A stretch of DNA of 64,000 bases. It comes from Prevotella sp. (GTDB lineage Bacteria; Bacteroidota; Bacteroidia; Bacteroidales; Bacteroidaceae). This document shows positions 13,262 to 63,210 of the stretch, piece after piece (positions within the stretch are counted from its first letter, which is position 1; every line of letters starts with the position of its first letter). Location of the stretch: NCBI GenBank assembly GCA_022781445.1, contig JALETQ010000018.1, positions 323 to 64,322 of the forward strand. The letters are read 5' to 3'. The notes under the pieces are model-generated. The model did no database searches, was not told where the DNA came from, and was given only the letters and a program-made list of their open reading frames with translations. The position numbers were made by a program, and so were the translations under genes.

Positions 13262-13324
13262 ACAACAAAAATAGTCCGAAGGCAGGTGTCAGCCGTGGGA
13301 GGTCTCTCATTCGCCGTCGGACTA
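13262..13324 (-). terminator. Candidate terminator of hsp20
   Basis: Stem TAGTCCGA (13272..13279) with TCGGACTA (13317..13324). On the minus strand it is followed by UUUUUGUUGUU (plus-strand A-rich 13262..13270). It lies 56 nt downstream of the stop. Confidence 0.45.
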
Positions 13325-13379
13325 TTACGATTAAAAATTAAACTAACTCATTTATGAAAAACTACTGACTGTTTGCTCG

Positions 13380-13805
13380 TTACTCTACGTTGATGATGCG
13401 AGAGGTTTCCACTTCGGCTTTGACAACCTTGGGAATGCTGATGGTCAGCACGCCGTCTGTCATCTTTGCGCCAATGTTTTGTCTTTCGACGTCATCGGGA
13501 AGAATCAGTGTTTGTTCGAACTTGGTATATGAAAATTCCCTTCTCAAGTAGTGAGCCTTTTCGTTTTTGTCTTCCTTTTCTCTCTTGCTCTCCATCTTGA
13601 TGTTGAGATCTCCGGACTGATTGATGCGGATGTCGAAATCTTCTTTCTTCATTCCGGGGGCAGCAAGTTCGACCAAATATTCTTTTTCAGTTTCAATTAC
13701 ATTGATGGCTGGTGCCGTCGCGTTTGCCTTTGACATGAAATCCGTGTTAAAGAAATCGTTGAATACTTCTGGCAACCAAGTGCTTCTGTGCATAACCGGT
13801 AACAT
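13380..13805 (-). CDS. Hsp20/alpha-crystallin family small heat-shock protein
   Basis: Start taken at MLPVMHRSTWLPEVFNDFF (ATG 13805, preceded by AGGAGG); 141 aa. Alpha-crystallin core: AINVIETEKEYLVELAAPGMKKEDF...RREFSYTKFEQTLILPDDV...DGVLTISIPK. Confidence 0.85.
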   Translation of the reverse strand: MLPVMHRSTWLPEVFNDFFNTDFMSKANATAPAINVIETEKEYLVELAAPGMKKEDFDIRINQSGDLNIKMESKREKEDKNEKAHYLRREFSYTKFEQTLILPDDVERQNIGAKMTDGVLTISIPKVVKAEVETSRIINVE

Positions 13806-16463: not shown

Positions 16464-16541
16464 TTTCTTCTTATGTGCTGTATTTGATGATTGGCGGCAC
16501 GATTCCGCCTACTGCTTGGGGTGTGTCCCAACATCTTGGAA

Positions 16542-18350: not shown

Positions 18351-19561
18351 GGTATGGTTGCTTTGAGAATGTCTATCGGATTATAATTGTCGAGGACGAT
18401 ATGGATGGGGTTATGGGCGGTAAGACCGTATTTTGCAACGGCTTCTTCAAACAGTTCTCGGCTTTGGAGGCTCACCGCGTTCATCACGATGATACCCCCC
18501 GAGGGCATGATGGCGGTCAGTTTGCCGATGATATCGATGAGTTTGCCCCCGTGACCGCCGATGAATGCCGCGTCGGGGATGGGGAAAGTCGATACGTCGG
18601 TGGCCAAAAAGTCGCCGATGACGGCTCTGATGCCCGGTGCATGGAAGCGTCTGGAGTTGGTTTCCATCAGCTCCGCGCCTTCATTTCGGATTTCAAACGA
18701 CACGATGTTGAGGTGTGGAAACTGCAGTTTGGCTTCGATCGACACCGAGCCCGTGCAGAATCCCACGTCCCACATCACGCTTCGTCGTTGCAACTCCAAG
18801 GCTTGGAGCGACAACAGTCGTATGGGCATCTTGGTAATCATGCGCTCCCTGCTGTCGAGCAAGGCAAATTCGTGGTCGGGAATGCCGAAACGGCGACGGT
18901 TCCTTGCTCCCGTTTTTCTCTTGAGAATGAGGTTGTTGGGATGTGAAGCCTCATAAAGAGCCGCCTCTTCGAGCGTCATCCGGGTCACTTTCTCGCACGA
19001 AGGATTGCCGAGATGCTCGCCCACGACCATGTCATAGTCGTCAAATCCGTAGTCGAGCAGGTGCCGGGCAATGGCGGCAGGCGTGTTTTCGCGGTCTGTG
19101 AGTACCCCCATCTTGTCGGTTTGCTCGATGATGGCGCGGTCAAACTCGTGCCACGGGCGGCCGGTCAGCGACACGATGCGCATGTCATGGTAGGGCATGA
19201 CCAGCCGATGTGCCAAGGTTTGCAACGAGTTGAATGCCGGATGAATGCGAATGTCGGCATGGGGCATCTTGCGGCGGATGGTGTTGGCGAAGCCGAAAAA
19301 CAGCGGATCGCCCGAGGCAAAGACCACGATGGATGGTTCACCTTGGTCAAACACCTCTCTGTATTGGTCGAATACGGCATCCAGCGGAACGGTGATGTCT
19401 ATCCATCGGGCTTGCTCCGGCAACTTGTCGCGCATGATTTCGTGGTGACGCCTGCCACCCGAGAACACGCGGGCAGCGTTGATTTCATCGGTGATGTCGG
19501 GCGGAAACCAAGGGTGGGGGGCATCGCTGATGCCGATGACGGTGAAGGAAGAATGATTCAT
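18347..19561 (-). CDS. cbiET: Precorrin-6Y C5,15-methyltransferase (decarboxylating), CbiE-CbiT fusion (CobL-like)
   Basis: 404 aa. The N-terminal tetrapyrrole methylase fold has VFASGDPLFFG. The C-terminal SAM-MTase has DVGFCTGSVSIEA. A 4-nt overlap links it to cbiGF. Confidence 0.85.
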   Translation of the reverse strand: MNHSSFTVIGISDAPHPWFPPDITDEINAARVFSGGRRHHEIMRDKLPEQARWIDITVPLDAVFDQYREVFDQGEPSIVVFASGDPLFFGFANTIRRKMPHADIRIHPAFNSLQTLAHRLVMPYHDMRIVSLTGRPWHEFDRAIIEQTDKMGVLTDRENTPAAIARHLLDYGFDDYDMVVGEHLGNPSCEKVTRMTLEEAALYEASHPNNLILKRKTGARNRRRFGIPDHEFALLDSRERMITKMPIRLLSLQALELQRRSVMWDVGFCTGSVSIEAKLQFPHLNIVSFEIRNEGAELMETNSRRFHAPGIRAVIGDFLATDVSTFPIPDAAFIGGHGGKLIDIIGKLTAIMPSGGIIVMNAVSLQSRELFEEAVAKYGLTAHNPIHIVLDNYNPIDILKATIP

Positions 19562-19670
19562 GGAGTTGATTGTCGTGCGGAAGAACGGGCGAACCGCACG
19601 GGTATCGCTCGTCTTCGCGGGTGGATGGGAGCCGTGCCGGCCTTGTCAAACGGCAACGATTCCGAAGTGT

Positions 19671-21080
19671 TTACAGGTCTCTGCCGGGACGTAATGCCTC
19701 TGCATCGTCATAGCAAAGTACGGCGTTACAGAGCGTTGCGGCAAGGTTGCTGCCTCCCTTTCTGCCCTCCACGATGATTTTGGGTATGTGAACGAAAGGT
19801 TTGGTCATGTGTTTCGACTCACGGACGTGGACAAATCCCACGGGTGCGGCAACGATGCCGGCAGGTCTCGCCTTGCCCTTGCGGATGAGTTCGCACAGCT
19901 CCATGAGTGCCGTCGGGGCATTGCCGAAAGCGAAAAGTGCATCGGGATGCTCTTCGACGGCCAGCCTGATGCCGGCCTGCGTGCGTGTGATGTTTTGCGA
20001 GGCGGCCAGTTCTGCCACGCGTTCGTCGGCCAGATAGCATTTCGCGTCGATGCCCAATCGTTCCAAAGCACCTTTGCGGATGCCGCTCCTGACCATGGTC
20101 ACATCGGTCACGATGGTTTTCAGCGAGCCGTCTTTTACCTTATTATATAATCTTTCGACTGCCTTGTCGTCGGTGTGCAGAATGTTTTCCATGTCAAAAT
20201 CGGCGGTGGTGTGGATGGCATGGAGCAAGGCCCATTTGTGATCGAGGGGATAATCGTGGCGTGACAGTTCCTTCTCGATGGTCCTGAAGCTCTCGATCAT
20301 GATGCTCTGTCCGGGCTTTTCGCCCTCACCGGCGGCCTCGTTGTAGTATCCGCGCGGGGTAATCATCTTGCCGTTGCGGATGAATGTCTGCGAGTTTCCG
20401 ATGATGACAACCGTAAACATGTCGGTGTCTTCGGGGTCGAAGTCGGCAAGTGAAGTAATCTTCACTTCCTGTTCGTCGCGTCCCGCCTGACGGACGTAGC
20501 CCACGGGCGTGCTTTCGGCTCTGCCGTTTTGCAGCAACAGCTCTTTCATGCGGCACAACTGCCAGTAGCGGCCGTGGCTCTTGGGGTTGTAGACCGCTGT
20601 GATGAAGTCGCCGACGGCAGCGGCCGTGATGCGTTTTTCGATTCTTTCCCAAGGTGTCATGAGGTCGCTGAGCGAGATGATGCACAGGTCGTGACCGATG
20701 GGTGCGCCCAGCAGTGAGGCCGCTTTTTGGAAAGCCGAGATGCCCGGCAGGCAGATGATCTCGACATCGGTACCCCTTTCCTCTGCCATTTCGAAGATGA
20801 GGGGAGCCATGCCGTATATGCCGGCATCGCCCGAGCTGATCACTGCCACGCACTTTCCGCCTTCAGCCTGCTCGAAAGCCTGCCTTGCGCGGTCGCGCTC
20901 GCGGGTCATTCCCGTTGCCACCTGTTCGGCTTCGGGCTTCATGTAAGTTTCGATGAATTGGAAGTAATACTTGTATCCCACCACGACATCTGCCTCTCTG
21001 ATGGCTTCGATGGCAGCGGGGGTGATGTCTTCCCTGCTGCCCGGTCCGATGCCGACAATGGTTATCTTTGATTTTTTCAT
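19671..21080 (-). CDS. cbiHC: Fused precorrin-3B/cobalt-factor-III C17-methyltransferase (CbiH) and precorrin-8X methylmutase (CbiC)
   Basis: 469 aa. The N-terminus KITIVGIGPGSREDITPAA...SSGDAGIYGMA...PGISAF is CbiH-type. The C-terminal part, about 200 aa, HTTADFD...FGNAPTAL...GGS is CbiC-type. Confidence 0.85.
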   Translation of the reverse strand: MKKSKITIVGIGPGSREDITPAAIEAIREADVVVGYKYYFQFIETYMKPEAEQVATGMTRERDRARQAFEQAEGGKCVAVISSGDAGIYGMAPLIFEMAEERGTDVEIICLPGISAFQKAASLLGAPIGHDLCIISLSDLMTPWERIEKRITAAAVGDFITAVYNPKSHGRYWQLCRMKELLLQNGRAESTPVGYVRQAGRDEQEVKITSLADFDPEDTDMFTVVIIGNSQTFIRNGKMITPRGYYNEAAGEGEKPGQSIMIESFRTIEKELSRHDYPLDHKWALLHAIHTTADFDMENILHTDDKAVERLYNKVKDGSLKTIVTDVTMVRSGIRKGALERLGIDAKCYLADERVAELAASQNITRTQAGIRLAVEEHPDALFAFGNAPTALMELCELIRKGKARPAGIVAAPVGFVHVRESKHMTKPFVHIPKIIVEGRKGGSNLAATLCNAVLCYDDAEALRPGRDL

Positions 21081-40075: not shown

Positions 40076-41308
40076 CTATTGGCTGAAACGGTGACGCTTC
40101 GTGGCCCTCTGCGGCATGCGGCTGCCCGCCGATACGCCATAGCTGCCGCTGCCGTGTGCCACACCGCTGTAACGGTCGTAGCGCATCCGTATGCTCCGCA
40201 CGTAGTCGAAGGTCTCGTCGCCGCGCATATAGCCGTGGCGTACCTCCGGTCGTCGGTAGTATTCGGGCCGCGACAGCATGAGGATGTAGTGCGACACGTC
40301 GTCCCAGCGTTGCGGATTCCGGCCCTCGCCGGCTGCCAGTTTCCGGGCATCCTGCACATGACCGTAGCCGGCGTTGTAGGCAGCGAGGATGAAGCTGGTG
40401 CGCTCTTCGGGATGACGGATGTCGGCAAAGAGGCTGTTGAGATATGCCAGATGGCGTGCGGCCGCTTCGACATTGGCTTCGGGCTGATAGATCTGTGCCG
40501 TCGGCAGGCCGTGGCGTGTGGCCGTGGCCGGCATGAGCTGCATGAGTCCGCAAGCCCCTGCCCACGACTGGGCTCCGGGGTCGAATGCCGATTCCTGATA
40601 ACACTGTGCTGCCAGCAGTCGCCAGTCCATGCCTGCCAAGGGTGCATAGCGCATGAACAAGGCGTCGTAGTCGGAGATGATGCCCTTTCCGGCATTGCGG
40701 ATGGGGCTGTAGACGCGACGGCGGATGTATCGGCCGACCGCCATTTGCTGTTCCTCTTTCCTTGCCTTCGCGTAGAGATCGGGCTTGTACCACCGGTTGA
40801 GAGCGGCAGCCAGTTCGGCATTATGTGATGCCACGGCCCATGCCGTTGATTGGCGGCCGTCTTCCGACTGTGCCCCGCAGGCTGTCAGTCCGTTCTCGGC
40901 AATGAGGCGTCGGGGCAGCTGGAAGACGATGACATCGCCGTCGCCCTTTCGCAGCCGGTTCACCATCTCGGCCGTATCCTTGCACAGTTCGGCACGCACG
41001 GAAACGCCCATTTGACGGGCAAATTGACGGAACATCACGTATTGCAGACCCCTGCCCTCGTCGCGATAGTCGTAGTAGGTGTCGGGACCCGAGAGCGTGA
41101 GCATGATGATTTCACCGTTGGCAACGATTTCGTCGAGCGTATAGACGGTGGTGCGTTTCACGGTGTCGTCCACGAGCGTACCCCACGGTGTCTTCTCGCG
41201 TGCCTCTTTCGTGCCGCATGCCCCAAGACACATGATTGAGGCTGCCAGAAATGACAGCCATGTCACCCGGATGAAGTGAGGGGATGAAGGGGGAAGGACG
41301 TGTTTCAT
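40076..41308 (-). CDS. mltF: Membrane-bound lytic murein transglycosylase F-like protein (SBP_bac_3 domain plus SLT domain)
   Basis: 410 aa. Lipoprotein-like N-terminus (LAASIMCLGACG), a solute-binding-like domain, then the SLT catalytic region AAQCYQESAFDPGAQSWAGACGLMQLMPATA and AYNAGYGHV. Confidence 0.8.
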   Translation of the reverse strand: MKHVLPPSSPHFIRVTWLSFLAASIMCLGACGTKEAREKTPWGTLVDDTVKRTTVYTLDEIVANGEIIMLTLSGPDTYYDYRDEGRGLQYVMFRQFARQMGVSVRAELCKDTAEMVNRLRKGDGDVIVFQLPRRLIAENGLTACGAQSEDGRQSTAWAVASHNAELAAALNRWYKPDLYAKARKEEQQMAVGRYIRRRVYSPIRNAGKGIISDYDALFMRYAPLAGMDWRLLAAQCYQESAFDPGAQSWAGACGLMQLMPATATRHGLPTAQIYQPEANVEAAARHLAYLNSLFADIRHPEERTSFILAAYNAGYGHVQDARKLAAGEGRNPQRWDDVSHYILMLSRPEYYRRPEVRHGYMRGDETFDYVRSIRMRYDRYSGVAHGSGSYGVSAGSRMPQRATKRHRFSQ

Positions 41309-50442: not shown

Positions 50443-51321
50443 TCAGATGTCGTAGTCGAAGGTCGTGGTATTCCAGTCGCCGCTCTCAAAGCCTTTTTTG
50501 AGCCAGTACATACGTTGTTCGGAAGTGCCGTGTGTGAATGTTTCGGGATTGGCATGGCCTTGTGCCTGTTTCTGCAGGTAGTCGTCGCCTATCTTCCTGG
50601 CGGCATCGATGGCCTCGCGCAGGTCGGCATCGGTAAGACTCCTGTACTTCTCGTTTTCGTAGTGTGCCCAGCAGCCGGCGTAGTAGTCGGCCAGCAGCTC
50701 GAGTTGGACGCTTATCTTGTTTGCCTCCTCCCGGCTTGTCCGGTTCATGGCCGCGTGTGCCTTGCCGAGTATGCCGCGTAGATTTTCCACATGATGGCCC
50801 ACCTCATGGGCGATGACATAGGCATAGGCAAACGAATTCCTGTCGTTGATGTCGATGCCTAACTTGTTCTTCATGTCGGCAAAGAAACTGAGGTCAAGGT
50901 ATAATTTCTGATCGGCACTGCAATAGAACGGCCCCATCTGTGAAGATCCTGCTCCGCAAGCCGTCGACACGGAACCTGTGAAAAGTACCATTGTGGGATA
51001 TTCGTAGTTGAGTCCGTTTTGGCTGAACTGGCTTGTCCACACCTCTTCAAGACTTCCGAGGACCTGTTTCGAGAACGTGGCTGCCTCTTCTTCGTCGGCC
51101 GTGAAGGTGTGATGGCCGTTGCCGGCCTGCTCGGATACCTGCCCTTGCAGTTGCTGTTGGAATACATTTCCTACCACATCCGACAGGCTTCCGCCCTGTG
51201 CCAACGTGATGAGTGCAACAATAATAATCGCTCCCAGTCCGCCCATTCCGGCTTTGGCTCCTCCGCCCATGCCGCGGCGATCCTCTACGTGGTTACTCTC
51301 TCTGCGTCCGTTCAGTTTCAT
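50443..51321 (-). CDS. ypfJ: YpfJ-family neutral zinc metallopeptidase
   Basis: 292 aa. N-terminus MKLNGRRESNHVEDRRGMGGG, one TM segment, and a HEVGHH zinc motif. Confidence 0.8.
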   Translation of the reverse strand: MKLNGRRESNHVEDRRGMGGGAKAGMGGLGAIIIVALITLAQGGSLSDVVGNVFQQQLQGQVSEQAGNGHHTFTADEEEAATFSKQVLGSLEEVWTSQFSQNGLNYEYPTMVLFTGSVSTACGAGSSQMGPFYCSADQKLYLDLSFFADMKNKLGIDINDRNSFAYAYVIAHEVGHHVENLRGILGKAHAAMNRTSREEANKISVQLELLADYYAGCWAHYENEKYRSLTDADLREAIDAARKIGDDYLQKQAQGHANPETFTHGTSEQRMYWLKKGFESGDWNTTTFDYDI

Positions 51322-51669: not shown

Positions 51670-52992
51670 TTATTCCCTGTCATCGGTTTCCGAAGGTTGG
51701 GTGGTGATACCGAAGGAGGAAGGGATATTGAGGAAAAGCGTCACGAGGAAAACAGCGGGTGTGGTAGCCATCACAACGAGATAGAAGGTGCGATAGCCGA
51801 AATTGTCGATCAGGAAGCCAGAGCAGATGCCCGACAGCCACAGCGAGAATGACATCAGTGCCACTGCGATGCCGTAGTGGGCCGCCGCTCTGTCGCCTCT
51901 TGCATGATATACCATGAACATGAGGCAGGCAGCCATGCCGATTCCCACGCCGCCTTGCTCGATCAACAGGCACAGCGATACCGGCAGCAAACTGTCGGGC
52001 ATCGTGTAGGCAAGGTACAGAAGGGCTGCCTTGGGAAGGGTGAAGAGGGCAAGCATGGGCAGCATGAGGCGTTTGAGACCGTATCGGCCGATGAGCAGAT
52101 TGCCCGCCAGTCCGCCTACAACCATGGCCAACACGCCGACGGTGCCTTGTGCAAAGCCGAACTCTTGTGGTGAAAGTCCCAGTCCTCCGATGCTGGTCTT
52201 GTCGATGAGGAACAGCGGAGTCACCCTTGCCGTCATGCCTTCGGTGAGCATACAGACCGCCATGAACGCCACGGCCACCTTGGCATGGGGCTTACGCAAG
52301 AAAGTATTGAGGTTGGCTCTGAACATTCGCCGCAAACGTGCCGACGAGATTTCTCCCAAACGTAGCGGATGGTCGTCGGGACGGGGCAGGAACAGGGCGT
52401 TGAAGAAGAAGAGCAGGGCCATCACGGCTGCCACCGTCCATACCACCATGCTCCATGAAGAGGCCACGCTGCGCGTCAGCACCTCGAGGTTGCCGGCTAC
52501 CATGACGAATATGCCCTGCACCCACACGAAGGTGATCCGGTAGAAAAACCGTCGCACGGAAATCATCGGGATGGATCGGTCGCTCCCGATGCCCAAGTGA
52601 TAGAATCCGTCGACGGCGGTGTCGTGGGTCGAAGCGGCGATGGCCAGCAGCCAGAAGAAGGCGGTGATGGTGTTCAGACCCATACGCGTCTCGACGGCAC
52701 GTGCCACCCCCATGACGGCAATCACTATCAGGGCTTCAGACAGGAGAATCCAGAAGCGGCGCGTGCGATACAGGTCGATATAGGGACGCCACAGCGGCTT
52801 GACGATCCAAGGCAGGAGAAAGAAGGACGTTTGCCAAACGATGGCGGCATTGTCCATGCTCAAACGCTTGTAGATGAACATCGACAAGGTCATCAGCACC
52901 GCGAAAGGCATGCCCTTGGCGGTATAGAGCAACGGAAGCCATGTCCAAGGGTTCCGGTGTGTCGGGCGTGATGTGCGGAGGTGTTTGAGCAT
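51670..52992 (-). CDS. AmpG-family MFS transporter (paralog 2)
   Basis: Start taken at MLKHLRTSRPTHRNPWTWLPLLYTAKGMPF (ATG 52992); 440 aa, about 12-14 TM helices. The longer track ORF (to 53292) overlaps the upstream gene. Confidence 0.8.
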   Translation of the reverse strand: MLKHLRTSRPTHRNPWTWLPLLYTAKGMPFAVLMTLSMFIYKRLSMDNAAIVWQTSFFLLPWIVKPLWRPYIDLYRTRRFWILLSEALIVIAVMGVARAVETRMGLNTITAFFWLLAIAASTHDTAVDGFYHLGIGSDRSIPMISVRRFFYRITFVWVQGIFVMVAGNLEVLTRSVASSWSMVVWTVAAVMALLFFFNALFLPRPDDHPLRLGEISSARLRRMFRANLNTFLRKPHAKVAVAFMAVCMLTEGMTARVTPLFLIDKTSIGGLGLSPQEFGFAQGTVGVLAMVVGGLAGNLLIGRYGLKRLMLPMLALFTLPKAALLYLAYTMPDSLLPVSLCLLIEQGGVGIGMAACLMFMVYHARGDRAAAHYGIAVALMSFSLWLSGICSGFLIDNFGYRTFYLVVMATTPAVFLVTLFLNIPSSFGITTQPSETDDRE

Positions 52993-53006: not shown

Positions 53007-54332
53007 TTATCCTTGCGCGTCTTTCTTGCCGAAGTCGGCATCGATGTGTATGAAGTGGGTCACGGCAAAGGTGATGAGGCACAAGAACATCACCATGATG
53101 AAGAACGAACGGTAGCCCATCGCGTCTTTCAGAAAGCCCGACAACATGCCCGGCAGCATCAGTCCCAAGTAGGTGATGCCGGTACAGATGGCGTAGTGCG
53201 AGGTTTTGAACATGCCGCGGCTGAAGTAGAGCATGTAGAGCGTGAGGGCGGTGAAGCCGAGTCCGTAGCCGAATTGTTCGATGAAGAGGCACGAACTGAT
53301 GACCCAGAGGTTGGTGGGCAGTTCAAAACTCATGTACACGTAAACGATATCGGGCAGGGTGATGGCCCACACCATCGGCCAAAGCCATCGCTTGAGCCCG
53401 TCGCGACCGGCAAGCATACCGCCCGCGATGCCTCCGAGCAGCAGCCCGATGAGACCCACCGTGCCGTTGGCAAGTCCGTATTGGGCTGTCGTGAGCCCCA
53501 ATCCTCCTTCCTCGTTGGGACGCAACAGGAAGGTTTCGGTCATTTTCGACAACATCGCCTCGGGAAAACGATAGAGGAGCATGAACGCCAAGGCAAAGAA
53601 CATCTGTTTGGCAGGCAGCTTGCGGAAAAAGGTGGAGAACATTTCGAGGATGCCTTCCATCACCTCGCGTGCATTCTTGTCGGTCCTTCCGTCGGCAGGA
53701 TGCGGCATGGCGACACCGTGGAAGAGCCATAGGGTAATGAACACGGCAGCAAGTCCGTAGAAAACGAGGCTCCATGCAAACGCCTTGTCGTTGCCCCACC
53801 ACGTGGCAAACAGCCCTGCCACGGGTACAAGCAGTCCTTTTCCGATGATGACGGCAATGCGATAGAATGTGTTGCGGATGCCTACGAACCATGCCTGGTC
53901 GTGGGCCGACAGTTCGATCATGTAGAACCCGTCGGCGGCAATGTCGTGGGTGGCACTGCTGAACGCCATGAGGAAGAAGAAGAACATCGTGCCTTGAAAC
54001 CACCAGTCGGTTTGCAACGTGAATGCCACACCCGCCAATGACGAGCCGAGCAGCACCTGCATGGCAAGCACCCACCATCGTTTGGTCTTGCACAAATCCA
54101 CAAAGGGACTCCAAAAGGGCTTGATGACCCACGGCAGTCCCAGCCATGCGGTATAATATCCGATTTCGGTGTCGGTGAGTCCGAGCTGCATATACATCAC
54201 CACGGCGACAGTCATCACCAACACATTGGGCAGTCCTTCGGCAAAATAGAGAGTTGGTATCCATGCCCAAGGATTTCGGCTTTGCTTCTTATGGTTATCG
54301 GTAGCGTTCATTCTTGATGGGTTTGGCTTCAT
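53007..54332 (-). CDS. AmpG-family MFS transporter (paralog 1)
   Basis: 441 aa. ...RNPWAWIPTLYFAEGLPNVLVMTV...LPWVIKPFWSPFVD... is AmpG/muropeptide-permease-like. About 40% identical by eye to the downstream paralog. Confidence 0.8.
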   Translation of the reverse strand: MKPNPSRMNATDNHKKQSRNPWAWIPTLYFAEGLPNVLVMTVAVVMYMQLGLTDTEIGYYTAWLGLPWVIKPFWSPFVDLCKTKRWWVLAMQVLLGSSLAGVAFTLQTDWWFQGTMFFFFLMAFSSATHDIAADGFYMIELSAHDQAWFVGIRNTFYRIAVIIGKGLLVPVAGLFATWWGNDKAFAWSLVFYGLAAVFITLWLFHGVAMPHPADGRTDKNAREVMEGILEMFSTFFRKLPAKQMFFALAFMLLYRFPEAMLSKMTETFLLRPNEEGGLGLTTAQYGLANGTVGLIGLLLGGIAGGMLAGRDGLKRWLWPMVWAITLPDIVYVYMSFELPTNLWVISSCLFIEQFGYGLGFTALTLYMLYFSRGMFKTSHYAICTGITYLGLMLPGMLSGFLKDAMGYRSFFIMVMFLCLITFAVTHFIHIDADFGKKDAQG

Positions 54333-54381: not shown

Positions 54382-57300
54382 TCATTGGTAGGCTTGCCTG
54401 ATGTCGGCATGGCGGTAGTAATGCAGGAGGATGTCGCGATAGGCATATCCTTGTTCGCCCATCACGGCGGCACCGATTTGGCATAGCCCCACGCCATGTC
54501 CCCATCCGGCACCATAGAGACGGAAATGCTGCGGCACACCGTCAACGATGTCGGACTTCTCGGTATCGAAAGCCGAACTGTAGAGATGGCTCTCGCTCAG
54601 GACGCGTCTTATCTCGAGTTCTTTGCCGATGGTGAACGTGCGCTTCGTTCCCACAATCCTGAGTCGGGATATGCGACCGCTCCTGCCTCGCTCTTCTGCC
54701 ACGAGGTCAAGGATGTCACCGAAGTCCATTTTCATTTTCCTGCCGATGAGTTCTGTCAGCTCTGCCTGTGTGTAGTCCACTGTCCAGCGGTAAAAGTCGG
54801 GCGTCTCTTGATCGTAGTCGTTGAGTACCTGTTGCAGAACGTGCCGGTCGGCAGTGTTGCAGAAGGCATCTGGCGCGGAGCGCACCCATCGTTGCCAATC
54901 GTGGGGATTCTCTCCTTCCTCGCCGGCCACATCTCTCAGTGCCACAAGATAGGGTTTGGGCTTGTTTTCCCAGCAGAACTGAAACTCTTCGGTCATGCCA
55001 CCACAGCATTTGCTGTAGCGTGCATCGCATATTTCATCGCCATAAACCAATATCTGACCTCTTGTTTGTTTCACGGCATCGACCACATGGGTGTTGGCCG
55101 CCTTGGTGATTCCCTGATAGCGTTGGCAATGATCGTCGGCACAGACATCAAAGATGCCGTGGTCTTCGCGGTCGTACCAGCGGATGAAAGTATCTTCCGA
55201 CTTAATGAAGGAGAAGAAATTGTTTTCACCTTCGGCATTCATTCGCCGCTTGGCAAGTTGGGCCAGCAGCCAGCTGCGCGACACTACGGCATGGGCTTTG
55301 AGTAGCTCGGGCGATGACGTGGCATTCATTTCGCTGGAGATGACGCTCATGAGATAACGCTCCACGGGCAGCCGGTTGATGGCACATATCTTGCCTTCGT
55401 AGACCACGAGCGACAAGATGCCGTTGAATGTCTGGGTCTCTTGTCGTTCCCAGTGGAAGTTCACGCCGATGGTTACTTCGCGAAGTGAGAAGGATGCCTC
55501 GCCGGACAGTGGCTCAAAGTTGAGTTCGGAATAGATGTTCCCGTTCCAAAGGATGCCTCCTTCTGCCAGTTCTACCTTTTGCTCGCCCTCTGCCACCTCG
55601 CCTTTGGCACGGTAGGGACTGTTGAGATCGAAGACCAACTGTTCACCGCTCACGATGCCTACGCTTACGGTGGGTTCGGTTTTGGGCAGCGATGATGTCA
55701 GCGCACAAGTGCGTTCGTCGGCTTTTGCTCTGATGCGTGCGGTCAGATTCTCCACATCTTCCCATGATAAGGATACCTCTTGCAGGATGTCGCCGGCCTT
55801 GTCATCGATGCGATCGAAGTCGGTTTGGCGTGGTGTGATGAGTAATCCGCCCATGTCGATGGCACCGGGACTGACCATCAGACGCCGGTCTTCGGGTACT
55901 CCGTAGCAGTCGGGACGGTGCTTGCGACGCGGAAATACCACCACGAGATCTTCGTCGTTTTCGTGCCATCCGATGAGATTGATCATCGGCTCGGTGTCGC
56001 CTTCTGCCACATCGAGCGACCGATGCAGGTATGTGAGCAGCCGGGCACCTATTTCTTTGTGTCTGCTCTTGATGACAAATGCCGGACATACATAACCGTG
56101 GATAAGGAAAATGCCTTCGCGGTCGTTGACCGTCAGCACCGTTTCGAGGTTGCGGCTCAGTCTTTTCCAACTCTTCTGGATGGGCAATATGCCACTTGTG
56201 CCGAGCTGGAAATGAAGATGGTCGGGTGCCGAAGCTCCGCAGCGCGGGCCGTTGTAGAACACCATGCGTTGACGATACTGTCGCAGTAACCTGTAGAACG
56301 CACGTTCGTTACCCTCGATTTGTTGTGGACGATGCTCGTCATGGGCGATGGTGAAGTGCATGGGCAGAATGGGGAAGGGATTGACCAGCAATTGCCAATG
56401 ATGCTCCACCCGACGGAATGTTTGGCACTCCGGACGGTTGGCTTGGCAGAGGAAGCACGGTCGTTTTGCCACACTGCCCGGGTCAATCTTGGCAGTGGTC
56501 GAGGCGATGCGTCCCTCATTGTATTGTACCATGAGCTCGGTTTCGCCCGCATGAACGGTTTTTGTCTTCACGTCGGCAAGTCGGCGATAGTTGTCGGCAG
56601 CATCTTTCCAACTTGACAGCTGATGGTGGAAGAAGCGCAAAATACTCTCATCGGCCTCATCCGGCACATCATCGGATGTCACTTGTTGGCGAACTGCAAT
56701 TTCGATGGTTCGCAAGCGGTCTTTATACAGATTGTTGGCATTGATCTTTTCGACGCTCAGCGCGGCATCGCTGTTGCCTTCCCATCTACGGCATAGATAC
56801 AGTTCGTCGTAGATGCGTCCGATCTTGTATCGACGACTGAACGCCAGACCGGCGGCATAGTCCTCACCGTAGCTCGTGTTGGGAAGGGGCATGGCACGCA
56901 GCAACGGAGTATAGAAAGCCCGAGGAGCTCCAAGCCCGTTGATGCGGAGGGCATTGTTGGCTCCATTGTCGGTAGTCCATTCGCGGTGGTCGATGATGCC
57001 GGGAGGCAGTGTTTGCAAACTGAAGTCGCACATCCGGTAGGAGCCGATGACCATCGCAGCCCTTTCCTGACGGAAGCAATCTACGATATGTTGCAGGGTT
57101 AAAGGCGAAGAATAGAGGTCATCGCTATCGAGTTGAACAGCGAAGCGTCCGCATCGGTCATCTTCGACGGCTGTATTCCAGCATCCACCGATACCGAGGT
57201 CGCGACGTTGGGGGATGATATGGATGAGTTTTCCCTTCGTGGCGGGGTCGCTGTCAAGGCGCGCTTTCATCTCGTTTAGTACCTCGGTGGTACCATCGGT

Positions 57301-58212
57301 CGAATGGTTGTCGACAACGATGACATTATAATTGAAAGCGGTTTCTTGTTGCAAGGCCGAAGTTACGGCATCAGCGATGGTTTTGCAACGGTTGAATACG
57401 GGAATGATGACCGAGGCTTCATGGGCAAAAATATCCTCATCGAGATCTGGTTCGATAACGCCCGACATATCCACTTTCGCACCGATGGCTTCGAGATGGG
57501 CGGTGGCTACGAGTTCCATTTCCACTTGAACCTCGCGGTTTCGGGGATTAACGTAATCAAATTGCTTTTCACCGCTTGCCCGCAAGTCGAGTTCGACCTC
57601 GGTATATAGGTATTCGTTGAGATGAAACAGTTTTCCTTTTCTACTGAGATACAGTCGCAAATCATACCATCCGGCATAATGGTAAGCCGGCAACGAGGCT
57701 GCCGAGGCGTAATCGCGCAGATGTTCGGAGCGAATCAATACGAGCGAACCGAAGTCGAAGTCGTCACGGATGCTGCCTTTCTGGTAGTCGATGACAGGAT
57801 GAGGCTTGCGTGTTCCAACGGTCAAGGCGTCGTCGATGATACCCGTTTCGGGTATCGTAGTACACTCGAGGCAATGACGATCGGCATAAATCATAGCTGC
57901 CTGGGTGGCATCGGCTACTCCGATGAGGCGCTCGAGGGCTGCTTCTCCAAGTAGCAACGGTGTGGACTTGAGGCATAAAACGGCATATTCGGCAGCTGCC
58001 TCTCGTGCCATGTTGAGCATGGTCTGCGACGATTGTAGGCGGTCGGTTACCAGCCATCGGCAGCCATCGGGCAACTCATGACCGGCAATGAAAGCCTCAT
58101 TGACCATCAAAAATATATGTCTGACACTGACCGAGTGGCGTAATTGAGCCACAAGGTGACGAGCAACGGATAGGTCGTTGCACGGCAAAAAGATATCTGT
58201 TTTATGCCACAT
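54382..58212 (-). CDS. Large multidomain protein: N-terminal GT-A-like region plus family-2 glycosyltransferase plus HIT/GalT-like (DUF4922-type) nucleotidyltransferase/phosphorylase plus SpoIID/LytB domain
   Basis: 1276 aa, single uninterrupted ORF. GT2 region: aa about 265-510 (SVIIPVFNR, VVDNHSTDGT, LDSDD). HIT-like region: aa about 525-815 (NPFPILPMHFTI, APDHLHFQ). SpoIID region: aa about 850-1276 (ERYLMSVISSEM, AHAVVSRSW, CADDHCQRYQG, ARYSKCCGG, GHGVGLCQIGA). No signal peptide or TM helix is apparent. Confidence 0.8.
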   Translation of the reverse strand: MWHKTDIFLPCNDLSVARHLVAQLRHSVSVRHIFLMVNEAFIAGHELPDGCRWLVTDRLQSSQTMLNMAREAAAEYAVLCLKSTPLLLGEAALERLIGVADATQAAMIYADRHCLECTTIPETGIIDDALTVGTRKPHPVIDYQKGSIRDDFDFGSLVLIRSEHLRDYASAASLPAYHYAGWYDLRLYLSRKGKLFHLNEYLYTEVELDLRASGEKQFDYVNPRNREVQVEMELVATAHLEAIGAKVDMSGVIEPDLDEDIFAHEASVIIPVFNRCKTIADAVTSALQQETAFNYNVIVVDNHSTDGTTEVLNEMKARLDSDPATKGKLIHIIPQRRDLGIGGCWNTAVEDDRCGRFAVQLDSDDLYSSPLTLQHIVDCFRQERAAMVIGSYRMCDFSLQTLPPGIIDHREWTTDNGANNALRINGLGAPRAFYTPLLRAMPLPNTSYGEDYAAGLAFSRRYKIGRIYDELYLCRRWEGNSDAALSVEKINANNLYKDRLRTIEIAVRQQVTSDDVPDEADESILRFFHHQLSSWKDAADNYRRLADVKTKTVHAGETELMVQYNEGRIASTTAKIDPGSVAKRPCFLCQANRPECQTFRRVEHHWQLLVNPFPILPMHFTIAHDEHRPQQIEGNERAFYRLLRQYRQRMVFYNGPRCGASAPDHLHFQLGTSGILPIQKSWKRLSRNLETVLTVNDREGIFLIHGYVCPAFVIKSRHKEIGARLLTYLHRSLDVAEGDTEPMINLIGWHENDEDLVVVFPRRKHRPDCYGVPEDRRLMVSPGAIDMGGLLITPRQTDFDRIDDKAGDILQEVSLSWEDVENLTARIRAKADERTCALTSSLPKTEPTVSVGIVSGEQLVFDLNSPYRAKGEVAEGEQKVELAEGGILWNGNIYSELNFEPLSGEASFSLREVTIGVNFHWERQETQTFNGILSLVVYEGKICAINRLPVERYLMSVISSEMNATSSPELLKAHAVVSRSWLLAQLAKRRMNAEGENNFFSFIKSEDTFIRWYDREDHGIFDVCADDHCQRYQGITKAANTHVVDAVKQTRGQILVYGDEICDARYSKCCGGMTEEFQFCWENKPKPYLVALRDVAGEEGENPHDWQRWVRSAPDAFCNTADRHVLQQVLNDYDQETPDFYRWTVDYTQAELTELIGRKMKMDFGDILDLVAEERGRSGRISRLRIVGTKRTFTIGKELEIRRVLSESHLYSSAFDTEKSDIVDGVPQHFRLYGAGWGHGVGLCQIGAAVMGEQGYAYRDILLHYYRHADIRQAYQ

Positions 58213-58807
58213 TCCTTTTCTTGATTATGCTTTGAGGCAGGTTCTGTCAGTACCCGCCTTACCGGTTGTCTTCGAATTACAGATTCCGTTTTGTCTTTTT
58301 TCGGCTTTTTGTCGGTGCTGAACGCAGGTTTTTTCAGTCGCAATGCTTCACATTGCTTTTTCAAAAACGTACACATTCACCCTTGGTTAAAAGCTCATCA
58401 TCAGACAAAGCAATTTTAAGAACCTGCCTTTATTCTTCATCTGCCGAAGAAGAGGGACACTCGAACCCTTTTTTCAAACTGATGCAAATGTACGAATAAC
58501 CGTCTGAATACCCAAATTTTCACGGCCTTTCGTAAGGTCTCTCCCCTGTAACATACAGCTTTGATGGCGTGAAGCCACAAGACACAGCATTCGTTGTGCC
58601 GATTTGTTCACTATGGTCGAAAGAGTTTGATGTGAATGGTTGGGTTAGTCGATAGTTTTTTCGTTGGTATGATGTGTGCCGGGTTGGTTAATTTTGTTCA
58701 TTGAACCCTCTAAAAAAGCAACATTCCGAAGTGCTGTGATGGCACGAGAATGTTGCTCGGTGTTGTTGGCCATGGGGCGTAAGTGGCTTGTCATCGCCGT
58801 TGACCTA

Positions 58808-58898
58808 TGGCGGAAGGTGAGGGATTCAAACCCCCGATACCCGAAGAGGGTATACCGGATTTCGAGTCCAGCGCGATCGTTCACTCTGCCAACCTTCC
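58808..58898 (-). tRNA. tRNA-Ser (anticodon CGA), type II with long variable arm, CCA encoded
   Basis: Minus strand: GGAAGGT acceptor paired with ACCTTCC, anticodon stem CTGGA/TCCGG with loop CTCGAAA, variable arm ATACCC-TCTTC-GGGTAT, T-arm GGGGG-TTTGAAT-CCCTC, then G-CCA. The D-loop lacks GG and the T-loop has T at the C56 position (see findings). Confidence 0.8.
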
Positions 58899-58911: not shown

Positions 58912-58919
58912 CAAAAGTA
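58912..58919 (-). promoter_or_regulatory. -7 box TACTTTTG for tRNA-Ser
   Basis: Plus-strand CAAAAGTA equals minus-strand TACTTTTG, 14 nt upstream of the tRNA 5-prime end. Confidence 0.5.
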
Positions 58920-59872: not shown

Positions 59873-61120
59873 TTACGACAGTTTGTGGATAACCAAGCCA
59901 CTGCGCAGTTTAGGTTCGAACCATGTAGCCTTGGGAGGCATGATGTTGCCACTGTCGGCAATGTCCATGATTTGTTGCATCGAAACGGGATAGAGGGCCA
60001 AAGCCATCTTCATCTCGCCGTTGTCTACTCTTCTCTTGAGTTCTTCGAGTCCGCGCAGACCACCAACGAAGTCGATGCGCTTGTCCGAACGGAGGTCTTT
60101 GATACCCAGCAGATCATCGAGGATGAGACGGCTGGAGATGTCTACGTCGAGCACACCGATGGGATCGGCATCGTTGAATGTGCCTTCTTTGGCCACGAGG
60201 CTGTACCAGCGACCGTCAACGTAGAGGGAGAACTCGTGGAGTTTGGCGGGTTTGTAAGCTTCGGTGCCTTTATCGGTCACGGTGAAGTTTTTCTTCAGGG
60301 CTTCGAGGAACTGCTCGGTGGTCATGCCGTTGAGATCCTTCACCACGCGGTTGTAGTCCAAAATGGTGAGTTGTGATGCTTGGAAGCACACAGCCATGAA
60401 GTAGTTATATTCTTCGTCGCCTTTGTGGTTGGGGTTTTGTTGTTGTTTTTCGGCACCCACGAGGGCAGCGGCAGCTGAACGGTGATGGCCGTCGGCGATG
60501 TAGAGGCTGGGCATCTTGGCAAATTCGTCGGTAATCAGCTTGATGTCGTTATCGTCGGAGATGACCCACAGCTGATGACGGAATCCGTCGATGGGAGCGA
60601 TAAAGTCATACTCGGGAGCTGTGGCGGCATAGCGCATGATGAGGGTGTCGAGCGTGGTGTTGTCGGGATAGGCGAAGAACACGGGTTCGATGTTGGCATT
60701 GTTTACGCGAACATGCTTCATGCGGTCTTCTTCCTTGTCGCGACGGGTCAGCTCATGTTTTTTGATGACACCGGTCATGTAGTCGTTCACATAGGCACCC
60801 ACGACGAGACCATATTGTGTTTTGCCGTTCATGGTTTGGGCATAGATATAATATTGGTCTTTGTCGTCTTGCTTGAGCCAGCCTTTGTCTTGGAACATCT
60901 GGAAGTTCTCGGCAGCCTTTTCATACACGCGGGGATCGTATTCACTGGTACCCGGTTCGAAGTTGATTTCGGGTTTGATGATACGATAGAGACTCATCTC
61001 GTTGTCGCCTGCCTCGGCGCGTGCTTCTTCAGAATCCAACACGTCGTAGGGACGAGACTCTACTCTCTCCACATATTCTTTGGGAGGTCTGATACCTTTG
61101 AATGGTTTGATGATTGCCAT
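59873..61120 (-). CDS. DUF1015 domain-containing protein
   Basis: 415 aa. MAIIKPFKGIRP...SRPYDVL...YIADGHHRSAAA... is characteristic of DUF1015. Confidence 0.8.
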   Translation of the reverse strand: MAIIKPFKGIRPPKEYVERVESRPYDVLDSEEARAEAGDNEMSLYRIIKPEINFEPGTSEYDPRVYEKAAENFQMFQDKGWLKQDDKDQYYIYAQTMNGKTQYGLVVGAYVNDYMTGVIKKHELTRRDKEEDRMKHVRVNNANIEPVFFAYPDNTTLDTLIMRYAATAPEYDFIAPIDGFRHQLWVISDDNDIKLITDEFAKMPSLYIADGHHRSAAAALVGAEKQQQNPNHKGDEEYNYFMAVCFQASQLTILDYNRVVKDLNGMTTEQFLEALKKNFTVTDKGTEAYKPAKLHEFSLYVDGRWYSLVAKEGTFNDADPIGVLDVDISSRLILDDLLGIKDLRSDKRIDFVGGLRGLEELKRRVDNGEMKMALALYPVSMQQIMDIADSGNIMPPKATWFEPKLRSGLVIHKLS

Positions 61121-61127
61121 GGCTTTC

Positions 61128-62045
61128 TTATTTGTTTACTTGGAACTTGGTGCATCCGTCTTTGAAGAATGCGTTGATTTGTTGCGCGGCAGCGATGCCT
61201 GCATTGATGTTGGCTTCCGCGGTCTGGGCACCCATTTTCTTGGGAGTGCTGAAATAGCGTCCTTCAAACTTGGCAAACTCGGCGTCGGCATCGGGCTTGA
61301 TGTCGGTCATGTATTTCAAGTCTTCGCGTTCGCTCATGAGTTTGATGAGTTCGGGCTCGTTGATGACTTCTTTGCGAGCCGTGTTGACAACGATACCGCC
61401 TTTTTTCATCTGTCCTACCGTAGCGTAGTTGATGCTTTCTTTGGTTTCGGGTGTGGCAGGGATGTGGAGCGAAACGATGTCGCAGGTCTTGAAGAGTTCA
61501 TCTTGGTTGGCCACAGCGTGAACACCTGCTTCTTCGATGGCGCTTGCAGGGCAGAAGGCATCATAGGCATAAACGTCCATGCCAAAACCTTTGGCGATGC
61601 GAGCCACGTTGCGTCCCACGTTACCGAACGCGAGGATGCCCAGTTTCTTGCCCATCAGCTCGGTGCCGGCTTTGCCGTTGAAGAGATTTCTGACAGCATA
61701 AACGAGCATACCGAACACGAGTTCGGCCACAGCGTTGGAGTTTTGGCCGGGAGTGTTCTCTGCCACAACATTGTGTGCGGTGGCGGCAGCGAGATCGATG
61801 TTGTCGTATCCGGCACCTGCGCGAACAACGATTTTGAGTTCCTTGGCAGCATCGAGGACTTCGGCATCGACCTTGTCCGAACGGATAATCATGGCATTGG
61901 CATCTTTCACTGCTTCGAGAAGCTGAGCTTTCTCGGTATATTTTTCGAGCAGAACGAGTTCGTGTCCGGCTCCTTCAATTTCTTTTCTGATACCGTCGAT
62001 AGCAACTGCTGCGAACGGTTTTTCTGTTGCAACTAATACTTTCAT
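61128..62045 (-). CDS. serA: D-3-phosphoglycerate dehydrogenase (short form, no ACT domain)
   Basis: 305 aa 2-hydroxyacid dehydrogenase. GILAFGNVGRNVAR NAD motif and an ...HIPATPETK... region. Sits between serC and the DUF1015 gene. Confidence 0.8.
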   Translation of the reverse strand: MKVLVATEKPFAAVAIDGIRKEIEGAGHELVLLEKYTEKAQLLEAVKDANAMIIRSDKVDAEVLDAAKELKIVVRAGAGYDNIDLAAATAHNVVAENTPGQNSNAVAELVFGMLVYAVRNLFNGKAGTELMGKKLGILAFGNVGRNVARIAKGFGMDVYAYDAFCPASAIEEAGVHAVANQDELFKTCDIVSLHIPATPETKESINYATVGQMKKGGIVVNTARKEVINEPELIKLMSEREDLKYMTDIKPDADAEFAKFEGRYFSTPKKMGAQTAEANINAGIAAAQQINAFFKDGCTKFQVNK

Positions 62046-62085
62046 GGGTTGAATGGTTTAATAATATAATGTGTAATGATGATTG

Positions 62086-62121
62086 AAAGACCAATCTCCG
62101 ACACGTCGAAAATTGGTCTTT
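62086..62121 (-). other. 10-bp perfect hairpin in the serC-serA intergenic spacer (attenuator or processing site?)
   Basis: AAAGACCAAT (62086..62095) pairs with ATTGGTCTTT (62112..62121). No U-run follows on the minus strand. Confidence 0.3.
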
Positions 62122-62142
62122 CGTCGATAACCTGCTGAAGGG

Positions 62143-63210
62143 TTAGTGTTTGGCTTCGAAGTCTTTCATGCACTGAACGAGGGCGTTGCATCCTTCAATG
62201 CTCATGGCGTTGTAGCAGCTTGCACGGAATCCACCTACCGAACGGTGTCCCTTCAAGCCTACCATTCCGCGTTCTGTTGCGAAATCGAAGAATTCTTTTT
62301 CGAGTTCTTTGTACTCGTCTTTCATCACGAAGCAGATGTTCATGAGTGAACGGTCTTCTTCTGCAACGGTTCCACGGAACAATTTGTTGCGATCGATTTC
62401 ACCGTAAACGATTTCACCGCGTTCTCTAGCAATCTTATCCATGGCAGCTACACCGCCATTGGCTTTGAGCCAGCGGAGAGTTTCGAGTGCGCAGTAGATG
62501 GGAACCACGGGAGGAGTGTTGAACATCGAGCCTTTTTCTACGTGTGTGCGATAGTCGAGCATGGTGGGGATTTCGCGGGGAGCGAGGCCGAGCTTGTCGT
62601 TCTTGACAATCACGAAAGTAACACCTGCCATGGCAAGGTTCTTCTGTGCACCACCATAGATAGCGTCATATTTGGATACGTCGATAGGACGGCTGAAAAT
62701 GTCGGACGACATATCGGCAATCATCGGAACGTTAACATCGTATTCTTTTCTAACTTCGGTTCCGTAAATGGTGTTGTTGGTCGTGATGTGAAGGTAGTCC
62801 ACATCAGCAGGGCATGTCCAATCTTTGGGGATGTAGGTGTAATTGGCTTCAGCAGAAGAAGCTAATTCGATAACATCGCCTACCAATTTGGCTTCCTTCA
62901 TGGCTTTCTTTGCCCAGACACCGGTGTTGAGGTAGGCAGCCTTCTTGATGAGGAAGTTGAGGGGAATCATGTAAAATTGGAGCGAAGCACCACCACCGAG
63001 GAATATAACGGAGTATCCTTCGGGGATTTCAAGCAGTTCCTTGAAGAGGGCTACAGCCTCATCGACAACAGGCTGGAAGTTCTTGGCACGGTGGCTCATT
63101 TCCATCAAGGAAAGACCCGAGCCTTCAAAATCTAAACATTGTTTGGCTGTGTTTTCAATCACTTCGCGCGGAAGAATTGAAGGACCCGCATTGAAATTGT
63201 ACTTTTTCAT
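62143..63210 (-). CDS. serC: Phosphoserine aminotransferase
   Basis: 355 aa. [28 protein letters not shown](L) with the PLP lysine, and FRASCYNA are canonical SerC sequence. Confidence 0.95.

Follow-up and report, generated by a model that had tools for sequence, protein, structure and literature searches.

Within a 64,000-nt stretch of a Prevotella sp. genome (hereafter the window; contig JALETQ010000018.1 of assembly GCA_022781445.1, forward-strand positions 323 to 64,322), a single open reading frame (ORF) on the reverse strand encodes a 1276-aa protein in which a family-2 glycosyltransferase (GT2), a HIT-superfamily domain, and a SpoIID/LytB domain are fused behind an N-terminal region predicted to adopt a degenerate GT-A fold. 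Directly downstream lie two genes for AmpG-like permeases of the major facilitator superfamily (MFS). We propose that the fusion and the AmpG-family permease(s) constitute a cytoplasmic module that would process imported peptidoglycan amino-sugar saccharides composed of N-acetylglucosamine (GlcNAc) and N-acetylmuramic acid (MurNAc), namely GlcNAc-MurNAc and GlcNAc-1,6-anhydroMurNAc, a proposal to which we give about an even chance of being correct. A first-pass annotation of the window had suggested a cytoplasmic pathway that handles imported muropeptide or glycan fragments and couples them to nucleotide-sugar chemistry; the observations below support this idea as far as sequence analysis reaches, and the function is what we infer from them. 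The features on which the argument relies are as follows.

54382..58212, reverse strand: whole ORF, four-module fusion, 1276 aa plus stop
57427..58212, reverse strand: module 1, predicted degenerate GT-A (GT2-like) domain, aa 1–262 (AlphaFold2 (AF2), Foldseek, hhalign)
56665..57426, reverse strand: module 2, family-2 glycosyltransferase, aa 263–516 (PF00535)
55720..56652, reverse strand: module 3, HIT-superfamily, GDPGP1-like domain (DUF4922, with GDPGP1_C on homologues), aa 521–831 (PF16269, Apa2 profile match)
54385..55692, reverse strand: module 4, SpoIID/LytB domain of lytic-transglycosylase type, aa 841–1276 (PF08486, TIGR02669)
57118..57129, reverse strand: DxD motif of GT2, D362-S-D-D365 (motif reading, alignment)
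56206..56220, reverse strand: HIT catalytic motif, H665-L-H667-F-Q669 (motif reading, alignment)
55330..55332, reverse strand: E961 in VISSEM, aligned with the catalytic Glu of Bacillus anthracis (SEM motif) and Clostridioides difficile SpoIID
55126..55161, reverse strand: Zn-type motif, H1018-x5-C1024-x3-H1028-C1029, then Q-R-Y (read from sequence)
53007..54332, reverse strand: AmpG-like MFS permease 1, 441 aa, 49 nt downstream of the fusion
51670..52992, reverse strand: AmpG-like MFS permease 2, 440 aa from an internal ATG, 16-nt overlap with permease 1

The fusion is a genuine single protein

Translation of the whole frame (54382..58212, reverse strand) reveals no internal stop and agrees with the original description of one uninterrupted 1276-aa ORF. 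The exact protein has an NCBI entry (MCI6702440.1, "DUF4922 domain-containing protein [Prevotella sp.]"), and identical or near-identical copies come from several independent metagenome-assembled genomes (MAGs). When 5.8 billion proteins were searched, the best 120 matches were all full-length (~1280 aa), carried the same Pfam set, and were 59–98% identical to the query, giving at least 120 non-redundant full-length fusion homologues. A genome scan with the HIT-domain profile, run on one genome per GTDB species, confirmed at least 596 relatives among the 600 pattern matches listed. Our locus comparisons rest on its best 80 loci, which are essentially all labelled Prevotellaceae and include Prevotella multiformis, P. 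pallens, P. histicola, P. disiens, P. falsenii, Segatella buccae, Xylanibacter, Palleniella, and Paraprevotella. The four modules form one ORF in 75 of these 80 species-representative loci, cultured type strains included, and sequence conservation spans all modules as well as the linkers between them. Split versions in some species, together with the Met36 start chosen by some gene callers, might suggest that the long ORF merges two or three genes through an assembly or frameshift error. The single ORF in so many independent species genomes, the full-length homologues, the independent MAG copies, and the conserved linkers leave this explanation with next to no probability; the fusion is genuine, and the concern about an artifact raised in the first-pass annotation can be set aside.

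Many database entries begin at Met36 (1241 aa) and leave off the first 35 codons (58108–58212). As residues 1–35 show conservation and make up the opening strand and helix of the GT-A fold in the AF2 model, the 1276-aa start is the right one. A search with a profile of proteins comprising the N-terminal domain (N), GT2, and HIT returned mostly Prevotella fusions. Prevotella-like fusions of 46–50% identity also occur on contigs labelled Clostridium sp. CAG:302, Sphaerochaetaceae, Alistipes, and Lachnospiraceae (L020, L047, L048, L061); these are probably mis-binned MAG contigs rather than cases of horizontal transfer.

Domain composition of the fusion

The three Pfam families named in the first-pass annotation all score above their curated cut-offs: Glycos_transf_2 (PF00535) at aa 267–400 with 71.2 bits against 23.3, DUF4922 (PF16269) at aa 527–671 with 197.3 bits against 23.6 and a match over the full model (1–145), and SpoIID (PF08486) at aa 938–1057 with 85.5 bits against 23. 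The catalytic motifs of the SpoIID and HIT domains, whose possible degeneracy had been flagged, are intact; the SpoIID Glu motif is present in 469 of 472 homologues and HxHxQ in 377 of 379.

No Pfam family matched the N-terminal 262 aa. The initial delimitation of a region of ~260 aa stands, but its fold, then called unclear, can now be predicted. The AF2 model built from a 38-sequence alignment (pLDDT 87.8, pTM 0.86) displays beta/alpha alternation, and a Foldseek comparison with the PDB places GT2 enzymes on top (TMq 0.5–0.6 overall), led by the chondroitin polymerase K4CP (TMq 0.55–0.61) and followed by SpsA, TarP, and AvpGT. In a profile-profile comparison by hhalign, 89 N-terminal domains and the GT2 domains from their own proteins aligned in register over 174 columns (probability 58%, E 1e-4). 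The position of the DxD motif is occupied by K82-S-T-P85, and the domain has conserved motifs of its own, DYQxGSxRDDFDFG and SGEKQFDYVNPRNR. The model and the alignments thus describe the N-terminus as a duplicated, degenerate GT-A domain without DxD, which is probably not a metal-dependent transferase; with this motif lost, the fusion would probably have no second transferase. Its role is probably to bind substrate or a nucleotide or to pair with the active GT2 as a pseudo-dimer, comparable to two-domain polymerases like K4CP. An earlier AF2 model from ten sequences (pLDDT 58) had given ambiguous nucleotidyltransferase and GT-A matches. We reject a sugar-1-phosphate nucleotidyltransferase fold in view of the absence of a glycine-rich loop, the GT2 enzymes as top matches, and the hhalign match to the protein's own GT2 domain.

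By family and motif, the second module is predicted to be an intact sugar transferase, in line with its initial assignment to GT2. It contains the motifs SVIIPVFNR, DNHSTDGT, QLDSDD, and YGEDY, and the DxD motif (DSDD, nt 57118–57129) is kept in all 347 homologues retrieved. The closest PDB sequence match of this active domain is again K4CP. The Escherichia coli enzyme consists of two tandem GT2 domains and therefore shares the tandem GT-A layout with the fusion, being the best sequence match of GT2 and the best structural match of the N-terminus. In K4CP, however, each of the two domains is active and carries a DxD, and the enzyme polymerizes a capsule, whereas the first domain of the fusion has K-S-T-P instead.

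For the third module, the GDPGP1_C family (PF26216) was not reported in the query by the local Pfam run but is precomputed on nearly all homologues and on the separate-gene versions, and the conserved PRxKHRP...SPGxxDMxG block is present in the fusion. A 20-sequence HIT profile finds the yeast Ap4A phosphorylase Apa2 (4I5T) as its closest structure in the PDB (E 7e-9). H665, H667, and Q669 are invariant in the HIT alignment, and H667 aligns with the histidine that is replaced by Ala in Apa2 entry 4I5V, a position that we take to be the nucleotidyl-accepting (nucleophilic) His of HIT enzymes. GDPGP1_C on homologues, the Apa2 match, and the conserved HxHxQ motif argue that this domain is a phosphorylase-type member of the GalT branch (NDP-X + Pi -> NDP + X-phosphate, NDP being a nucleoside diphosphate and Pi inorganic phosphate) and not GalT itself; we predict that it acts as an NDP-sugar or dinucleotide phosphorylase. 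The first-pass description of a GalT/Ap4A-phosphorylase-like HIT domain with HLHFQ holds for the superfamily and the motif (nt 56206–56220), but the domain is closest to the GDPGP1/Ap4A group and the GalT assignment is dropped. With the GDPGP1/VTC2 GDP-hexose phosphorylases and yeast Apa1/2 it shares DUF4922, GDPGP1_C as precomputed on its homologues, and an HxHxQ motif with a His at the position mutated in 4I5V, but the known members are eukaryotic, occur as stand-alone enzymes, and use GDP-L-Gal, GDP-Glc, or Ap4A. In the literature searched, DUF4922 occurred only in papers on eukaryotic GDP-hexose phosphorylases, with no characterized bacterial DUF4922 protein among them.

Module 4 also passes the NCBIfam model SpoIID_LytB (TIGR02669; aa 944–1272, 167.6 bits against a cut-off of 83.3), so that a full SpoIID/LytB domain with the Glu of VISSEM (E961, nt 55330–55332), as initially described, is present. 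It misses the cut-off of the SpoIID equivalog TIGR02870 (120.9 against 234.75 bits). By this score, the missing membrane anchor, and the Prevotella host, the domain belongs to the SpoIID/LytB family but is not SpoIID proper. Its PDB matches are 4RWR, 5I1T, and 5TXU. In C. difficile SpoIID, E101 is the catalytic Glu and the Zn site is formed by H134, C140, H145, and C146 (PMC6221140); the Zn-type motif of the fusion resembles this site and is found in 466 of 467 homologues. The GHGVG(L/M)xQ motif is nearly invariant, and the subfamily of the fusion has additional conserved Cys residues and an insertion. The SpoIID proteins of Bacillus and Clostridioides, which act in spore engulfment and include the three PDB matches, share with module 4 the family, the catalytic Glu, GHGVG, and the H/C/H/C zinc motif. 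They are, however, membrane-anchored and extracytoplasmic and work on denuded sacculus glycan together with SpoIIP, whereas the fusion has no export signal, has cytoplasmic enzyme partners, and comes from a non-sporulating Bacteroidota host.

The fusion family is predicted to reside in the cytoplasm

The maximum 19-aa Kyte-Doolittle mean of the fusion is only 1.17, a value too low for a transmembrane (TM) helix or the core of a signal peptide; the neighboring MFS proteins each contain 6–7 segments at or above 1.6. The query has neither a signal peptide nor a lipobox or TM helix, and a hydropathy screen found TM-like segments in 0 of 120 and 0 of 117 fused homologues. In stand-alone SpoIID-type proteins the sequence starts with the domain itself ("M..EP.I.VGI..."), so that a signal peptide would not fit. 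Two or three of the 119 stand-alone proteins (P0255, P0361, P0367) carry a hydrophobic N-terminal extension, but their starts appear to be miscalled, as the N-terminus typical of the family is recovered from an internal Met. Judged by hydropathy, a cytoplasmic location is thus predicted to be a family-wide trait, and the statement that the fusion lacks a signal peptide and TM helix, made initially for the query, extends to ~240 fusions and nearly all 119 stand-alone proteins. All characterized SpoIID/LytB proteins are extracytoplasmic (PMC6221140), and this precedent, along with the rare extensions, could be taken to mean that the fusion, or at least its SpoIID end, is exported non-classically to the periplasm or the cell surface, where its target would be the sacculus or foreign peptidoglycan, as for conventional SpoIID/LytB proteins. 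We consider this very improbable: in addition to the missing export signals and the domain-boundary starts, the fused GT2 and HIT domains require cytoplasmic nucleotides.

AmpG-like permeases and shuffled modules

The two AmpG-type permeases reported directly downstream (53007..54332 and 51670..52992) are 36% identical to each other, and their best and only PDB relatives are AmpG structures (8ZGZ, 9C3F; E 5e-18, full length). We call them AmpG-like because they score below the NCBIfam AmpG cut-off. For 70 loci, 1.5 kb or more of downstream sequence is available; in 64 of them the next gene, on the same strand, encodes an AmpG-like MFS protein, and the other neighbors vary. Tandem genes as in the window occur in 5 of these 64 loci; at four Prevotellaceae loci no MFS gene lies within 8.7 kb. 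The AmpG link is thus strong but not obligatory. Two further loci extend the context. In L089, an operon encodes, in order, N+GT2+HIT, SpoIID, an AmpG-like protein, a 310-aa weakly NagK-like protein, and MurQ, the latter passing its curated cut-off (TIGR00274, 312 against 302 bits). Within 10 kb of the module in L086 lie genes for a MurQ-like protein and a BadF-type kinase.

A search of 1.84 billion cluster representatives with aa 77–1276 as query yielded 1571 matches below 1e-30. The best 150 of these representatives, taken at the 50% identity level, were parsed locally into domains, with the following result.

HIT+SpoIID: 46 of 150
N+GT2+HIT: 33 of 150
N+GT2: 25 of 150
SpoIID alone: 25 of 150
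full four-module fusion: 12 of 150
fragments: 9 of 150

HIT and SpoIID are the tightest pair of modules, and the order N-GT2-HIT-SpoIID is kept in every fused protein parsed. Apart from the full fusion, the arrangements [N+GT2][HIT][SpoIID], [N+GT2+HIT][SpoIID], and [N+GT2][HIT+SpoIID] occur, nearly always in the same order. Maribellus comscasis has four adjacent genes for GT2 (487 aa), DUF4922/GDPGP1_C (331 aa), SpoIID (447 aa), and MFS (430 aa) proteins; in P. pallens, P. falsenii, and P. disiens the module is divided among three genes, with the MFS gene in addition, and P. histicola has [N+GT2][HIT+SpoIID] plus MFS. The stand-alone SpoIID-type subfamily is found in Bacteroidota and Ignavibacteria. 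The first-pass annotation had raised the question of whether the three domains also exist as separate adjacent genes and always with AmpG-like genes: they do so in M. comscasis and P. pallens, for instance, but "always" does not hold. This Rosetta-stone pattern argues that the GT2, HIT, and SpoIID activities share one pathway.

Relation to known recycling pathways

The closest described counterpart is an operon of Tannerella forsythia, Tanf_08345-08385, which comprises genes annotated as xanthan lyase, gtf, gtf, lytB, ampG, ybbC (namZ1), murT, murK, and murQ and is transcribed as a single unit under GppX control (PMC5388701). The functions of both Gtf genes are stated as unknown, Tanf_08360 is listed as a putative lytic transglycosylase, and a similar cluster exists in Bacteroides fragilis (bioRxiv 10.1101/2021.12.02.470905). 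T. forsythia AmpG imports GlcNAc-MurNAc and GlcNAc-anhMurNAc and is needed for growth on them (PMC5388701, PMC7670621). No AnmK orthologue is predicted in this organism, and its cytoplasmic anhMurNAc route "remains to be explored" (PMC7670621). Like the loci described here, the operon belongs to Bacteroidota, has the order glycosyltransferase(s), SpoIID/LytB-type protein, AmpG-type permease, and is linked to MurQ, as in L089. It differs in that the genes are separate and in that the papers mention neither a HIT/DUF4922 domain nor a cytoplasmic LytB.

The Proteobacterial AmpG-NagZ-AmpD-AnmK-MurQ pathway likewise imports anhydro-muropeptides through an AmpG-type MFS protein and processes them in the cytoplasm in the direction of MurNAc-6-P and MurQ. 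The fusion module, however, encodes no NagZ, AmpD, or AnmK but GT2, HIT, and SpoIID-type activities in their place, which implies a different chemistry. The gene is not new as such, since it is annotated as a DUF4922 protein and what appear to be split relatives have been noted, uncharacterized, beside ampG in T. forsythia. In the literature searched, we found no paper on a characterized cytoplasmic SpoIID-type enzyme or on this fusion; apart from the similar gtf, gtf, lytB, ampG order in T. forsythia, the original remark that no system of such architecture has been characterized therefore stands. The predicted system, in which an AmpG-type importer would feed a cytoplasmic SpoIID-type enzyme together with GT2 and a GDPGP1-like phosphorylase, has no characterized counterpart.

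A possible reaction scheme

In the scheme that we propose, the permease would bring in a muro-disaccharide or a short denuded glycan. The SpoIID domain would then carry out a water-free transglycosylation at C1 of MurNAc with the beta configuration kept, either making the 1,6-anhydro bond from MurNAc-beta-1,4-GlcNAc or, in reverse, opening it onto a sugar acceptor. The inverting GT2 would interconvert the beta-glycoside and an alpha-NDP-sugar, and the HIT domain would interconvert NDP-sugar plus Pi with sugar-1-phosphate plus NDP, so that GT2 and HIT would jointly act as a phosphorylase using a catalytic nucleotide. MurNAc-1-P or UDP-MurNAc could preserve the energy of the glycosidic or anhydro bond and serve wall synthesis; alternatively, free MurNAc could pass to MurK/MurQ. 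Such a scheme would dispense with the ATP-dependent kinase AnmK and would explain how Bacteroidota manage without it; fusions would be favored because intermediates could be channelled. In its most specific form, GT2-HIT-SpoIID would give Bacteroidota a hitherto unrecognized, ATP-independent salvage route for 1,6-anhydro-MurNAc, in which reversed SpoIID and reversed GT2 reactions and the phosphorylase lead to UDP-MurNAc or MurNAc-1-phosphate, amounting to a nucleotide-catalyzed 'phosphorolysis' of the anhydro bond. We regard this form as speculative and rather doubtful.

Several points weigh against a role of the module in peptidoglycan recycling. The steps proposed above are drawn from sequence and genomic context, and the direction of flux as well as the sugar, acceptor, and nucleotide named in them are tentative. 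An imported GlcNAc-MurNAc disaccharide does not contain the MurNAc-to-GlcNAc bond that SpoIID normally cuts, so that the model works only with longer imported oligomers, with reverse catalysis, or with a substrate made by GT2. To our knowledge, neither reverse action of a lytic transglycosylase nor physiological reversal of an inverting GT-A enzyme has been demonstrated. The two MFS proteins reach only 154.9 and 100.7 bits with the AmpG model TIGR00901, whose cut-off is 350. Moreover, the AmpG link is not obligatory, because Ignavibacteria, L092, and L086 lack an MFS neighbor. In Ignavibacteria the SpoIID-type gene stands alone. L092 (8001–10386) has a reversed order of SpoIID, DUF4922, and a separate GDPGP1_C ORF, possibly owing to a frameshift, with neither GT2 nor MFS near the SpoIID-HIT pair. 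In L086, an 819-aa fusion of GH9 and a CE4 deacetylase (11340–13799) with weak matches to PdaA-, NodB-, and PgdA-like models takes the MFS position after GT2-HIT-SpoIID. Finally, the equivalence with the T. forsythia operon draws on published annotations and not on sequence-level orthology.

Competing explanations

The module might instead be biosynthetic: GT2, aided by the degenerate GT-A domain, would build a short cytoplasmic glycan or glycoconjugate from an NDP-sugar, the HIT domain would supply or proof-read this sugar, SpoIID would trim the product or release it with an anhydro end, and the MFS protein would export it, or the product would feed protein or surface glycosylation. GDPGP1 is a quality-control enzyme of the GDP-hexose pool, which fits the proof-reading role, and the tandem GT-A layout resembles the polymerase K4CP in sequence and structure. 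In L087 (11542–17041), the module is followed by genes for a long MFS protein (613 aa), an ATP-grasp protein labelled 'sugar-transfer associated', another GT2, and a protein of 492 aa that matched no family. The initial description of the T. forsythia operon also linked it to glycosylation, and its expression is reduced in a gppX mutant whose glycosylation is altered (PMC5388701); this speaks for biosynthesis and against recycling. On the other hand, the one AmpG homologue from such an operon that has been assayed is an importer (PMC5388701, PMC7670621), the L089 operon runs on into the catabolic enzyme MurQ, the N-terminal GT-A domain has no DxD and is thus probably not a second transferase, and no flippase, polyprenyl-phosphate, or Wzx/Wzy-type genes are conserved near the loci examined. 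On balance, we consider a biosynthetic role unlikely.

Another explanation concerns the SpoIID-type domain itself, which might not be a lytic transglycosylase here. It could serve as a module that binds or activates a glycan or sugar, in the manner of the 'amidase enhancer' LytB of B. subtilis, or act directly on the product of the HIT domain, an NDP-sugar or sugar-1-phosphate, for instance by cyclizing this sugar to its 1,6-anhydro form or the reverse, with GT2 as an accessory. The tight HIT-SpoIID pairing (46 of the 150 representatives), the adjacent HIT and SpoIID genes of L092 without GT2 or MFS, the score far under the cut-off for true SpoIID (121 against 235 bits), and the extra Cys residues and insertion of the subfamily are all compatible with such a role. 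However, the catalytic Glu, the Zn-type motif, and GHGVG(L/M)xQ are almost invariant and argue for SpoIID-type catalysis rather than binding alone, which makes this explanation quite improbable.

If the recycling proposal is correct, it bears on a gap in current knowledge. Most of what is known about the recycling of peptidoglycan fragments comes from Proteobacteria and Firmicutes, and the cytoplasmic steps after AmpG are a gap for Bacteroidota, Prevotella, Tannerella, and Bacteroides included. T. forsythia grows on GlcNAc-anhMurNAc without a predicted AnmK (PMC7670621), and the fusion ties three activities to this gap. It would imply an intracellular role for the fold of SpoIID-type lytic transglycosylases, and a first proposed bacterial role for DUF4922/GDPGP1-like proteins would follow from it. 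The fusion also offers a single-gene target for genetics and biochemistry in the cultivable P. melaninogenica, P. multiformis, and S. buccae. In gut and oral Bacteroidota, the balance between release and recycling of muropeptides also influences the supply of immune-active peptidoglycan fragments to the host.

Other features of the window

The genes and signals flanking the fusion and permease genes are listed below.

50443-51321, reverse strand: YpfJ-type HExGHH zinc metallopeptidase, 348 nt downstream of the second MFS gene
58485..58492, reverse strand: candidate Bacteroidota-type -7 promoter box TACATTTG, a match to the TAnnTTTG consensus only, ~273 nt upstream of the ATG
58808-58898, reverse strand: tRNA-Ser(cga), between the fusion and the upstream IMPACT/YigZ gene

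The YpfJ-type peptidase was considered as a member of the module and ruled out, as no homologue is present in any of the 83 related loci. A non-coding gap of 595 nt (58213–58807) lies upstream of the fusion, in which an Rfam search detected no element besides the tRNA. The candidate promoter box at 58485–58492 would imply a leader of ~270 nt, and a second Bacteroidota-type -7 box, TACTTTTG (58912–58919), lies 14 nt upstream of tRNA-Ser(cga). A scan for sigma-70 promoters and terminators gave no enrichment over shuffled sequences, the model being ill-suited to Bacteroidota.

Further upstream (59873–63210, reverse strand), genes for a DUF1015 protein, a D-2-hydroxyacid dehydrogenase (SerA-like), and a class-V aminotransferase (SerC-like) stand together; DUF1015 and Aminotran_5 genes are also adjacent in the Ignavibacteriae locus L085. 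The window additionally encodes a conventional peptidoglycan-cleaving enzyme, an SLT-domain lytic transglycosylase (40076–41308, reverse strand), and a set of fused cobalamin-synthesis genes (14640–21080, reverse strand) for CbiJ+CbiD, CbiG+tetrapyrrole methylase, a methylase, and methylase+CbiC.

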